Positions 4,701 to 62,800 of a DNA stretch of 64,000 nt are shown here, piece after piece. Numbering within the stretch: position 1 is the first letter of the stretch; each line of letters starts with the position of its first letter. The position numbers and the translations under genes were made by a program. The stretch covers positions 1,612,001-1,676,000 of the forward strand of contig OX597841.1 in NCBI GenBank assembly GCA_951406725.2, written 5' to 3'. The notes under the pieces are model-generated. The model did not search any database. It saw only the letters and a list, made by a program, of their open reading frames with translations, and was not told the origin of the DNA. This stretch comes from Octopus vulgaris. Taxonomy: Eukaryota.

Positions 4701-5931
4701 TTATTTTTAAAATCGTAGACTCATCGTAGACGCGCGCTAATAGCCAGACGGGCTCGATATTAATCACGACTATAAGATACGCGAATTTGATTAAACTGCA
4801 CCGCAAAATGTGGGAGTAGTTAGGAATCTAAATCGAAGGGGACAGACACTCACACAACTACAGTTTTATATATATAGATACCGCAATAAGCAAATTTACA
4901 GTTGTAATCATCAAGGATATATATGTAGTATAAGTTTGTGCGTGTACATACCTGCTCAATTGGAAGATGGTTCCAGATATCAAGTATTGGATGTCGGAAG
5001 AAATTCGGACAATGGATACCATTGCATTTGTCCACATTCCAGGATGAAGGACTTCCTACCTTTAAGAAGGAGTTAAAGATCAACGAATTTGCTCCCATTG
5101 ACATGGCATAAGTTTTAATCCATTCACTACCTGAAATAATAATAATAATAATAATAATAATAATAATAATAATAATAATAATAATAATAATAATAATAAT
5201 AATAGTAGTAGTAGTAGTAGTAATAATAATAATGATGATGATGATGATGATGATGATGATGATGATGATGATGACGATGACGATAACGACGATACCACCA
5301 ACACCACCACCACCAACAACAACAACAACAACAACAATAATAATAATAATAATAATAATAATAATAATGATAATGATAATGATAATAATGATAATAATAA
5401 TAATAATATTATAATAATAATGAGGAGAAGAAGAATTGGAAGAAGAAGAAGAAGAAGAAGAAGAAGAAGAAGAAGAATTGGAAGAAGAAGAAGAAGAAGA
5501 AGAAGAATTGGAAGAAGAAGAAGAAGAAGAAGAAGAAGAAGAAGAAGAAGAAGAAGAAGAAGAAGAAGAAGAAGAAGAAGAAGGCTTCACTTACTTCTGT
5601 AGTAGGAAATCTCGTTACTGTCCTTCGAACCGACGACCGTCATAATATTCTTCGGTGAGTAATTCTTACAAACATGGCTGTCTTTGTTGTAAGTGAAGAA
5701 TTCTGATTTGCTGCTTAGAGCGAGGCCGGAACACTCCAGTAGACTTCGTGTTGAGTAGAATATTTCCGACGGTGACGACTGAAGGTAATCGTAAGAGTAA
5801 CCAGGAGGCAAAGATCTGTAATCGGCTGCACGGGATTCCTCGTTCGAGGTTGCAATCAGAATTGTTGTTGCAAAGATTATCAGGATTACCCTGGACATGG
5901 TTGGACTGGCAGAAGAATGAAACCGGAACAT
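1744..5931 (-). CDS. Paralog A: intact 5-coding-exon gene, 295 aa putative secreted PAN/Apple-like + uncharacterised Trp/Cys-rich domain protein. Exons 5931-5595, 5130-4952, 3326-3163, 2383-2223, 1790-1744
   Basis: Manually spliced with GT-AG at all junctions; 337+179+164+161+47=888 nt, open to TAA. Protein: MFRFHSSASPTMSRVILIIFATTILIATS...LECSGLALSSKSEFFTYNKDSHVC...SEWIKTYAMSMG...[18 protein letters not shown]...[70 protein letters not shown]. Exon sizes and phases match the other paralogs. Confidence 0.9.
2720..2747 (-). ncRNA. Minimal hammerhead-like motif in intron of paralog A (homolog in B at 18554-18582)
   Basis: CUGAUGA-AGGA(CUGGUA)UCC-GAAACGUC; palindromic minimal stem III, weak stem I. 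Confidence 0.45.
3450..3650 (+). mobile_element. Short (TA)n-associated repeat carrying a hammerhead-like core at 3525-3552; second copy at 43505-43710 (-)
   Basis: CTGACGA-AGAGC-TCT-GCTC-GAAACGTTA. A related motif lies at 59266-59292. Confidence 0.55.
3741..4215 (+). mobile_element. Mariner transposase N-terminal relic
   Basis: TACGAGGG terminus; EQRDAVKFCF..T..L..A..D.AMSKSQVYEWFSRF (HTH). Confidence 0.7.
4364..4879 (+). mobile_element. Non-autonomous Helentron/DINE-1-like element; second copy at 45109-45620
   Basis: Starts TACTAGCAGTATCGCCCGGCGTTGCTCGG and ends GACAGACACTCAC..TTTTATATATAT; the two copies are nearly identical. Confidence 0.65.
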
Positions 5932-6249
5932 TCTGGACCTGGAATCAGCAAACGGTTATATATATATATATATATATATATATATATGTGTGTGTGTGTG
6001 TGTGTGTGTGTGTGTGTGTGTGTGTGTGTGTGTGTGTGTGTGTGTGTGTGTTCTTTTATTTGTTTCAGTTATTTGACTGCGGCCATCGGTTGTCAAGCGA
6101 TGCTGGGAGACAAACACAGACACACAAACATATACACACACATACATACATACATATATACATATATATATATATATATATATATATATATATATATATA
6201 TATATATATATATATACATATATACATACATATAATATATATATATATA

Positions 6250-59800: not shown

Positions 59801-62800
59801 TATATATATATACACACATATATGCGACGGGCTTCTTTCAGTTTCCGTCTACCAAATCCACTCACAAGGCTTTGGTCAGCCCGAGGCTATAGTAGAAGAC
59901 ACTTGCCCAATGTGCCAAGCAGTGGGACTGAACCCGGAACCATGTGGTTGGTAAACAAGCTACTTACCACACAGCCACTCCTGCGCCTATATATATATAT
60001 AATTGAGTGATACTACACACTGATTGGTCAGAATACAGTTTGCAAACCTAGCAATCTGGAGCCCACACAGCTGTATTTAAGGCACAGATTTCATCATCTC
60101 GCTACAGTCAAAAATTGTGAAGTATGACTGTCACCACTACTACATGAACCTGGAGATTGCAGAATTTAAGGCATAAAAGTACTAGTTCAATCAGAATGAA
60201 CATTTAACATTCTATTATCTTATATTATATCATTATAAGATTGTAAATAAAACGTAAAAATCAGAACTTACTAACGAACTAAGTTGCCTATGTGACTTTT
60301 GAGTACACTATACACTAAAAGGCTGCACGTATATTAATACTACGAACATTCCCTTTTTACAAGAACATCAGCCCTAAAGCATGCGCATATTTTCCATATG
60401 TTTTACCTTCAAATCTCTCGTCGTTTGGCAACACCTCCAGCAAGGTAGACGGAAACTGAAAGGAGCCAGTCATGTTTTTTAAAGCAACGACAAGCTAGAT
60501 GTGTCTGTTCACCTCCAACAATCGAGAAAGGTCGCCATATTTCGATGTTTAACAAATATCTTTGTAGAGTGTGGGGTTACATAATAGATCGGTCTCTTAC
60601 CTAACACACCATTGAACCCCTATTGAGAAACCGATGGGTTAGATCGTCTGTAATGTATGTATAAAACTGTACACTTTGATCAATGTTATATATATTACAT
60701 ATGTGTGTGTATATATATATGTGTGTGGGTGTGTGTGTATTCTTATAGTCTTTTATTTGTTTCAGTCATTTGACTGCGGCCATGCTGGAGCACTGCCCTT
60801 AGTCGAGCAAATCGACCCCAGGACTTATTTTTTTAAGCTTAGTACTTATTCTATCGGTCTTTCATACCGAGCCGCTAAATGACGGGGACGTAAACACAAC
60901 AACATCGGTTGTCAAGCGATGTTGGCGGGACAAACACAGACACAAACATATACATATATTATATATATACGACGGGATTCTTTCAGTTTCCGTCTACAAA
61001 ATCCACTCCTTCATCCTCAAAACGACTGCTCCCTAAGTCCTACTTCAGTGTTTCATCTTCGGGAACTACCGAAAGTCACAGGGAGCATGTTCTAAATTAC
61101 AGAGACGGTGAAAGACAGTTTTAATGCCCTCTCTGTAACATAGTTGATTACCAGGATGGAATTGTGCATTGGTACATTGTACTGGTGAAGGTGCTACCGG
61201 CAGGAACCCAAGGGCTCCGGACGTTTACGACGAAATCTCTTCGTGGGCTCCCTCAAAATCTCCTCAACGTACTTGTTTGATCTCTTGGCCAGAGGGAATC
61301 CAGTAGACGTAGATGATGCCACTGCTGTCGTAGAAGGGGGGTGATCATGAGCTTCCCACTGGACTTGCTTCGCCTGGCCTTCTTGGGTCTGAAGGAGACA
61401 AGTTATTTTCATTGGACACTTTGTCTCTTCGTCTCTTGATCGTAACAGTAGAACTCTCTTTCGTTAAAGGTCACTAGAGACTCATGTAGTCTTGCATTGG
61501 AGGTCGTACTGCAGCTCCTTTTAATTGAAAAATATAGTCATTAGATCAATTTAAATACAGCGCTATCTTCAGCTGCAAGAAATATGGATTTTTAACAGAC
61601 AACATATATTAATGTAATTTTTCTTAAATACTTTAACCGAGCAAGAGGACGGAAGAATTTCATGTTGTCACTATTGCAGCAAGAATAGCTATGGTACTTA
61701 GGTTGAGGCACCAGAATTCAGTATGGTATTATCCATGCAATTTCAAAGTAAGGTGATTAAAATCAAAATAAGCAACAAAGATATCCAGAGGTAATGCAGG
61801 TATCCGTTTTGTTTATTTGAATTATACACACACACACACGCACACATATATATATATATATATATATATATATATATATATATATACACACATACACGCA
61901 TACGTACTCGTACCTACATTCACATGCACACACACATACAAACAAGCATGTGCATGTAAAACTTGCAATGTAAAAAGTTGTTTTTTTGTTGTTGTTTTCA
62001 GGTGAAACTTGTGTTATACAAAAAGAAAACAGCCGTAGTAACAATGGTGTTTAATGGACGAAATACAAATCTTGAAAACTGGTTCTCTGCTAAAAACCTG
62101 AAAAGTTCCCCATGGGACGATCTGGCAACGAGCTCCCATAATTATTTCTCAATAGCGGGCGTTGTGTAGGTCATCATTATCACTTCATATTACTCAATTG
62201 GCTTTAGATTCCGGGTTCAAATTTAATCCCTTTCAGAGCCGCTTAAGAAAAAGAAAAAATGAAAGTAAAGTCCAAGATGGATGTTCTCAATTCTTTTCCT
62301 TTTCTCCGAAATTCCTCATACAGAGCATTCGTCACGAGTTATTTTGAATTTATTTTCGAAATCGAAAATAAATTTTGCATTATATTCTTTGCACGAATAC
62401 TTTTTTATATACAGATTATTATTTAAAGATTATGTTTGCATAAACGCTGTCTGTCTGTCTATCTATCTAGCTATCCATCTATCTATCTATCTGTCTGTCT
62501 GTCTGTCTATCTATCTATCTATCTATCTATCTATCTATCTATCTCTCTCTCTCTCTCTCTCTCTATCTATCTATCTATCTATCTATCTGTCTGTCTGTCT
62601 GTCTGTCTGTCTGTCTATCTATGTGTCTATCTACATATTTATGTAGCTATCTACCTCTCTGTCTATCTACCCACTTATCTATCTATCTATCTATCTATCT
62701 ATCTATCTATCTACCTATCTGTCTGTCTTTCTGTCTACCTATCTATCTATCCATCCATCCATCCATCCATCCAAGTTACGGGAACGTAAACACAGCAACA

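Follow-up and report, generated by a model that had tools for sequence, protein, structure and literature searches.

Exon-scale mosaicism in a tandem Octopus gene family predicted to encode PAN and fibrinogen-like modules

Tandem gene families evolve in concert through gene conversion and unequal crossover, which leave patchy identity, paralogs closer to each other than to their orthologs, and chimeric duplicates. We analysed a stretch of 64,000 nucleotides from Octopus vulgaris (contig OX597841.1, positions 1,612,001 to 1,676,000; hereafter the window) that holds four paralogs of one five-exon gene, here called A, B, C and D. The genes are predicted to encode a signal peptide followed by two domains, one of the PAN/apple type, from exon 1, and one without a name, remotely like fibrinogen, from exons 2-5. 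The cluster fits the pattern of concerted evolution, so that its mechanism is not new, while the family seems to be.

Among described systems, the sea urchin Sp185/333 (SpTransformer) genes are clustered mosaic paralogs with adjacent microsatellites, for which duplication and gene conversion have been proposed as diversifiers; they have two exons with element patterns, and immune induction has been shown for them (PMC3091723, in the sections used here). The octopus genes are likewise clustered, mosaic and near microsatellites but have five coding exons; the likeness is one of organisation, and no sequence relationship is expected. Because microsatellites are everywhere in the window, no special role of theirs is shown in the octopus cluster. 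The FREPs of Biomphalaria and other molluscan FReDs join an N-terminal module to a fibrinogen-type C domain, with conversion adding variants, and some molluscan FReDs carry PAN/Apple domains (PMC7588048, in the parts cited). Whereas FREPs have one or more immunoglobulin superfamily (IgSF) domains before the fibrinogen domain, the octopus N module is PAN, and its model has no evident IgSF or coiled-coil linker; unlike FReDs, the octopus C domain has no Pfam Fibrinogen_C match (0/78) and its fold likeness is weak. Moreover, FREP conversion is somatic, whereas the octopus events dated here are germ-line and common to species. Octopus exon 1 has the same fold as the PAN/apple module of plasminogen and of the HGF N-terminal domain (PF00024), but the octopus proteins lack the kringle or protease domain of that type. 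The octopus cluster works like Sp185/333 and the FREPs and is a member of neither.

Genes A and B lie on the minus strand and C and D on the plus strand (Table 1). We consider it probable, at roughly three chances in four, that A, B, C and D are mosaics, at the scale of exons, within a single tandem Octopus family, shaped by germ-line non-allelic recombination in the form of short conversion and unequal crossover. Intron phases are identical in A, C and D, and since they are the same in all copies checked, chimeras would stay in frame. Gene A has an open frame of ~295 codons (its exon-4 start was placed by the acceptor AG; in the frame check the exon began 3 nt earlier). The frame of D remains open up to the end of exon 4, and gene B, as sequenced here, is broken. 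In gene C, the frame stops at codon 188 because an A-run of exon 3 is one base too long, and the O. vulgaris predicted protein P0052 (187 amino acids) equals gene C up to this early stop; the O. sinensis ortholog, P0053, is whole at 296 amino acids. The extra base is probably a sequencing error or a null allele, and the frameshift probably false.

The relationship between C and D changes abruptly in intron 2. Before this point they are 78% identical and from there on 97-99%, introns included; the block starts sharply at 38475 in C and 61511 in D, extends to the window end and comprises 2135 identical and 70 substituted columns. Identity reaches 99.4% in exon 3 and 97.5% in exon 4, and synonymous differences amount to 0/63 in exons 3-4 versus 12.5/36 in exon 2. 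All coding differences between C and D in exons 3-4 are non-synonymous (~5 amino-acid changes), counts too small to call selection. Congruently with the preliminary description, which had grouped A, B and C in exon 2 with D as the outlier, the first three are 89.3-92.9% identical to each other there and only 77.5-82.2% to D. Gene D has a 5' half of the P0058 type and a 3' half of the C type with a single breakpoint, and its four exons are collinear, with no other family exon between them in the window. A chimera of unequal crossover, later re-homogenised, would explain the C/D block better than plain conversion.

The near-identity of A and C over ~115 nt of exon 1 with about 3 mismatches, reported in the same description, was also borne out, with 3 of 117 nt mismatched between the inverted copies. 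When we applied a run test to the 138 polymorphic sites of exon 1 for all six gene pairs, the A/C run of 17 consecutive shared polymorphic sites was reached in 0 of 5000 shuffles (p = 0.0002), while the other five pairs gave p of at least 0.11. Synonymous differences between A and C fall from 19/44 sites upstream to 2/25 within the tract (small counts), compared with 4-8 of 24-25 sites for the other pairs in the same tract; part of it is conserved in all four copies. Of the 11 tract residues that separate C from its O. bimaculoides ortholog P0008, 10 are common to A, against 2 of 9 C-specific residues before the tract and 2 of 4 after it, a polarity set at the protein level only. As the O. bimaculoides C lacks the tract, the transfer would have gone from the A lineage to C. 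The upstream flank of gene A resembles P0005/P0017-type genes, and therefore the A lineage is the likely donor, although an A-like copy outside the window could also have served. A non-crossover event fits this tract, because A and C lie in opposite orientations and the sequence diverges on either flank.

The comparison with related species that the preliminary description had proposed yielded the same C and D combinations among O. sinensis proteins. Over exons 1 and 2, P0053 is 100% identical to C of the window, and P0009 carries the D combination, with exon 1 at 100% and exon 2 at 95% to D. Exons 3 and 4 of P0009 are 91 and 88% identical to P0053 but 59 and 53% to P0058; a D-type 5' half is likewise found in P0058 and P0019, but there the exons 3-4 that follow are just 53-59% identical to P0009. 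Several gene models contain a D-type exon 1, at 92-100% identity. Since O. sinensis proteins have the same exon combinations, the mosaics of C and D are not chimeras of this assembly alone, and because P0053 and P0009 show both, the C tract and the chimeric build of D would predate the vulgaris/sinensis split, placed at 2.5 Mya (million years ago), with O. bimaculoides at 34 Mya (10.1101/2023.05.16.540928, in the part used here). Another swap concerns the PAN module of gene B, which is 82% like P0015 but 66% like P0006, the ortholog of B in bimaculoides, although exon 2 of P0006 is 96% identical.

Mosaicism extends across the family. Among 26 full-length rows, 22 of 325 pairs combine one exon at 90% identity or more with another at 72% or less. 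The exon-partitioned likelihood (-6355; 24 of the 26 rows, two dropped) lay above that of 100/100 column shuffles (mean -6829, standard deviation 22); the exon 4 tree was built with a fast model. We also compared evolutionary rates. In a relative present as a single copy, on a large chromosome, 248/287 residues (86%) are identical between sinensis and bimaculoides. C reaches the same value (254/296), which gives no ground for a faster evolution of the cluster as a whole; in C only exon 1 is lower, at 78%, versus 92 of the first 100 residues in the control. The preliminary description had postulated recurrent conversion, including between inverted copies. The re-pairing of exon 1 with C-terminal exons recurs in the second species and the A/C tract fits this idea, but the C/D block points to crossover instead.

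The cluster was most likely built by short conversion events within exons together with unequal crossover in introns, and we propose three steps. At some time between the O. bimaculoides split (~34 Mya) and that of vulgaris and sinensis (~2.5 Mya), an A-lineage copy would have overwritten the 3' half of exon 1 of C. Intron 2 would then have been the site of a crossover between C and a P0058-type neighbour, X, which produced D from the 5' half of X and the 3' half of C, giving the gene order C-D-X and a repeat unit of ~23 kb (38475-61510) that would go on beyond 64000. Finally, a renewed exchange between C and D would have followed in the vulgaris line. C and D of vulgaris have 4 residues of exons 3-4 in common that both sinensis orthologs lack, and vulgaris D retains 2 sinensis-D residues that C lacks. 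This fits a patchy C/D re-exchange after speciation rather than the 3' half of D being an allele of C, and polishing could contribute.

Several points weigh against this scheme. Outside microsatellites C and D differ by ~2%, not far above the heterozygosity of the species, given as 1.22% (10.1101/2023.05.16.540928, same part). The partition test responds to between-exon rate differences as well, and approximately unbiased (AU) tests favour each exon's own tree by construction. The cross-species support consists of predicted proteins, and gene models in the cluster sometimes merge adjacent genes (B and A in P0016, several copies in P0001). Two sets of 17 and 27 matches contained no ortholog of A, which leaves the donor of the tract less certain. 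The mosaic junctions are seen in assembled sequence and predicted proteins; the window is visibly damaged around B, and polishing could have drawn C and D closer. As for the product, the fibrinogen likeness of the C domain is weak (Z 4-5, with TLDc equal).

It is unlikely that the mosaics are artefacts, with the C/D block and the A/B UTR made by collapsed or mis-joined haplotypes and by polishing with mis-mapped reads, and the agreement across species made by gene models fused across tandem copies. In favour of such an origin, microsatellite has replaced parts of B exons that are preserved in O. sinensis P0040, stray copies of intron 3 occur at 100%, the frameshift of gene C sits in an A-run and is absent from P0053, fused gene models do exist, and the published reference of the species was made from Oxford Nanopore (ONT) reads polished with short reads (10.1101/2023.05.16.540928, in the same part). 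Against it, the second species shares the exon 1 of C and the exon combination of D, D retains sinensis-D residues missing from C, and its four exons stand in order with no other family exon between them.

Less likely still is a history with no ongoing conversion, in which one-off segmental duplications and exon shuffling (birth and death) made the combinations and the donors are lost or elsewhere. The C/D block, with its abrupt start in intron 2 and no closing edge on the 3' side, would suit it, as would the D-type exon 1 shared at 92-100% by several models. Nevertheless, the A/C tract lies within an exon with both flanks divergent, and vulgaris C and D have species-specific residues in common though the chimera is already present in sinensis. 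That purifying selection or convergence kept the similar segments is very improbable, for although conservation across the family is highest in exon 2 (median 69% versus 45-61%) and part of the tract is conserved across all four copies, synonymous sites follow the same switches (in C/D, 0/63 in exons 3-4 versus 12.5/36 in exon 2) and the intron identity of C and D largely refutes it.

Table 1. Coordinates of the gene copies and related features in the window.
Feature	Positions	Strand	Remarks
Gene A	1744-5938	-	five coding exons: 5595-5938, 4952-5130, 3163-3326, 2223-2383, 1744-1790
Gene A 3' untranslated region (UTR)	1558-1744	-	
Gene A side of exon-1 tract common with C	5632-5748	-	3' half of PAN module
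Probably assembly-damaged zone	13117-18050	-	largely TATG/CTA repeat; exact stray copies from intron 3 of B
Gene B	18076-24847	-	exons 24510-24847, 21959-22126, 19714-19857, 18076-18239
Gene C	34496-41143	+	exons 34496-34832, 37391-37569, 38968-39132, 40132-40295, 41091-41143
Gene C side of exon-1 tract	34679-34795	+	
C copy of C/D near-identical block	38475-40696	+	end of intron 2 through intron 4
Gene D	53852-64000	+	exons 53852-54192, 57903-58081, 62002-62165, 63447-63610; exon 5 past window end
D copy of C/D block	61511-64000	+	sharp 5' edge in intron 2; no 3' edge within window

Gene B lies next to a zone that looks like assembly damage. Its exon 2 lacks the acceptor and the first codons and its exon 3 is overwritten in the middle; O. 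sinensis P0040, to which the protein of exon 1 and the surviving exon 2 is 100% identical, retains the exon-2 start. The O. vulgaris model P0016 is 100% identical to exon 1 of B, includes the corrupt stretch in its translation and joins B to A. Over 13117-22432, unique sequence including B exons seems to have been overwritten by TATG and GT microsatellite and pieces displaced, among them an exon-3-like piece at 17996-18040. The near-identical A/B 3' UTR of the preliminary description is present near B as two islands, 15168-15230 (63 nt) and 15268-15319 (52 nt), at 98%, but it proved unreliable. TATG runs stand there in place of the exon 5 coding sequence and 35 nt of the UTR, and the surrounding stretch is 84% simple repeat with exact stray copies of B intron 3 (25/25 and 38/38). 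Because the zone looks damaged, the A-like UTR is not assignable to B, and we lean towards an assembly artefact.

The same description had set A+B against C+D in exons 3-4. The C/D half of this claim stands on the identities given above, but A and B are only 74.3% identical in exon 3 and 72.2% in exon 4 (A versus C in exon 3, 73.6%), with a synonymous difference of 0.43 in exon 4. The A+B likeness is old paralogy from older shared ancestry, with no recent exchange, and neither it nor the UTR match is evidence of conversion.

Next, we characterized the predicted protein. The putative signal peptide corresponds to an N-terminal hydrophobic stretch judged by eye. The exon-1 module was modelled with a predicted local distance difference test score (pLDDT) of 78.8 and has the PAN/apple fold (Z 9.5, root-mean-square deviation (rmsd) 2.5, 74 residues aligned to plasminogen 4a5t; Z 9.1 to 3hms). 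Pfam PAN_1 matched 17 of 78 aligned relatives at E<=0.05, and in the scanned octopus cluster copies PAN remained under the Pfam cut-off (E 0.013-0.17). Exons 2-5 form one confidently modelled domain (pLDDT 92.4) that received no Pfam name in the scan of cluster copies; Fibrinogen_C matched neither P0055 nor was it among the 25 families listed for 78 members. The domain aligned to intelectin with Z 5.2 (rmsd 4.6, 152 aligned), tied with TLDc (Z 5.0-5.4). With Foldseek the top 12 rows were all FReD or intelectin at non-significant values (E>=0.035) and nothing was found at E<=0.001; a PDB sequence search gave 0 matches at E<=10. The closest named Atlas clusters were Fibrinogen_C (29% of members) and COLFI. 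In P0111 the C domain begins at VYCDM..DGGGWT, which we take to be a fibrinogen motif. From these models we tentatively read the exons 2-5 domain as remotely fibrinogen-like, and the product is most likely a secreted two-domain (PAN and fibrinogen-like) binding protein, likely recognising carbohydrates or surfaces.

The C domain is widespread, with 1080 representatives at E<=0.001 and relatives in Aplysia, a bivalve and Argonauta, and its neighbours in other proteins are EGF, TSP1, C-type lectin, sushi, F5/8 and PAN. It is also found in the large FG-GAP- or COLFI-bearing proteins P0122, P0108 and P0111, directly after a Fibrinogen_C N-terminal piece and in two copies each in P0122 and P0111; the P0122 cluster contains a JGI/IMG record and may be prokaryotic. 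The 17 protein matches to gene A exon 1 were all from Octopus. Of 48 matches to a full-length member, 34 lie on one small chromosome per species: 15 on one 15.1-Mb sequence in O. sinensis, 10 on one of 18.6 Mb in O. bimaculoides and 9 in O. vulgaris, where the cluster-bearing sequence reaches 29.2 Mb. Eight O. sinensis members lie on short unplaced scaffolds, and any copy number given for the family is probably provisional. Among the sequencing runs listed as containing the sequence, none is recorded as RNA, which says nothing about expression. No published description of the family was found, supplements and subscription papers, whose expression tables may include these genes, being outside reach; the family seems undescribed, and the exchange mechanism is already known.

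In this family, which has expanded on one small chromosome, two predicted binding modules have most likely been reshuffled by recombination over a few million years. This pattern, as in invertebrate recognition families, makes it a candidate for diversified recognition in cephalopods, with the caution that assembly and gene models in the cluster are unreliable (fused genes, overwritten exons and one probably false frameshift). In O. sinensis, P0054/P0058 and P0021/P0056 (LOC118768576, LOC118768579) are annotated isoforms with different first exons on common downstream exons. RefSeq isoforms X1 and X2 of LOC118768576 are 100% alike in exons 2-4 and 67% in exon 1. Interchangeable PAN first exons might be re-paired with fibrinogen-like constant exons within an animal as well as over evolutionary time, through alternative first-exon splicing or through somatic conversion of the kind known in snail FREPs, as a combinatorial recognition repertoire; we find this improbable, its basis being only these isoform pairs, possibly mapping artefacts.

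Two further ideas were considered. Microsatellite-directed breakpoints are not supported, because the exon-adjacent repeats were inherited from a common ancestor and simple repeats make up ~31% of the window (19658/64000 bases masked). An invertible C exon 1, suggested by a 550-bp flanking inverted repeat, was rejected since the repeat is the 3' end of a non-LTR (non-long terminal repeat) retrotransposon, with a 269-amino-acid frame (zf-RVT, E 3.9e-05), that sits in TAA/ATT runs and has related copies in B intron 1.

Finally, we recorded other repeats of the window. Two non-LTR 3' ends of opposing orientation flank C exon 1, at 32811-33860 (+) and 34988-35540 (-); each has zf-RVT and then a restriction-like nuclease-type tail ending in TAA runs, presumably resembling TAA-targeting R4/Dong-like elements, and more degraded copies occur at 23516-24277. 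An inverted-repeat element around (TA)25 at ~38335-38455 stops ~20 bp short of the C/D breakpoint; a hairpin element resembling it is found at 428-887, with a relative at 52381-52658. Intron 1 of C contains a 183-bp direct repeat (36738-36920 and 36971-37153, 98%).

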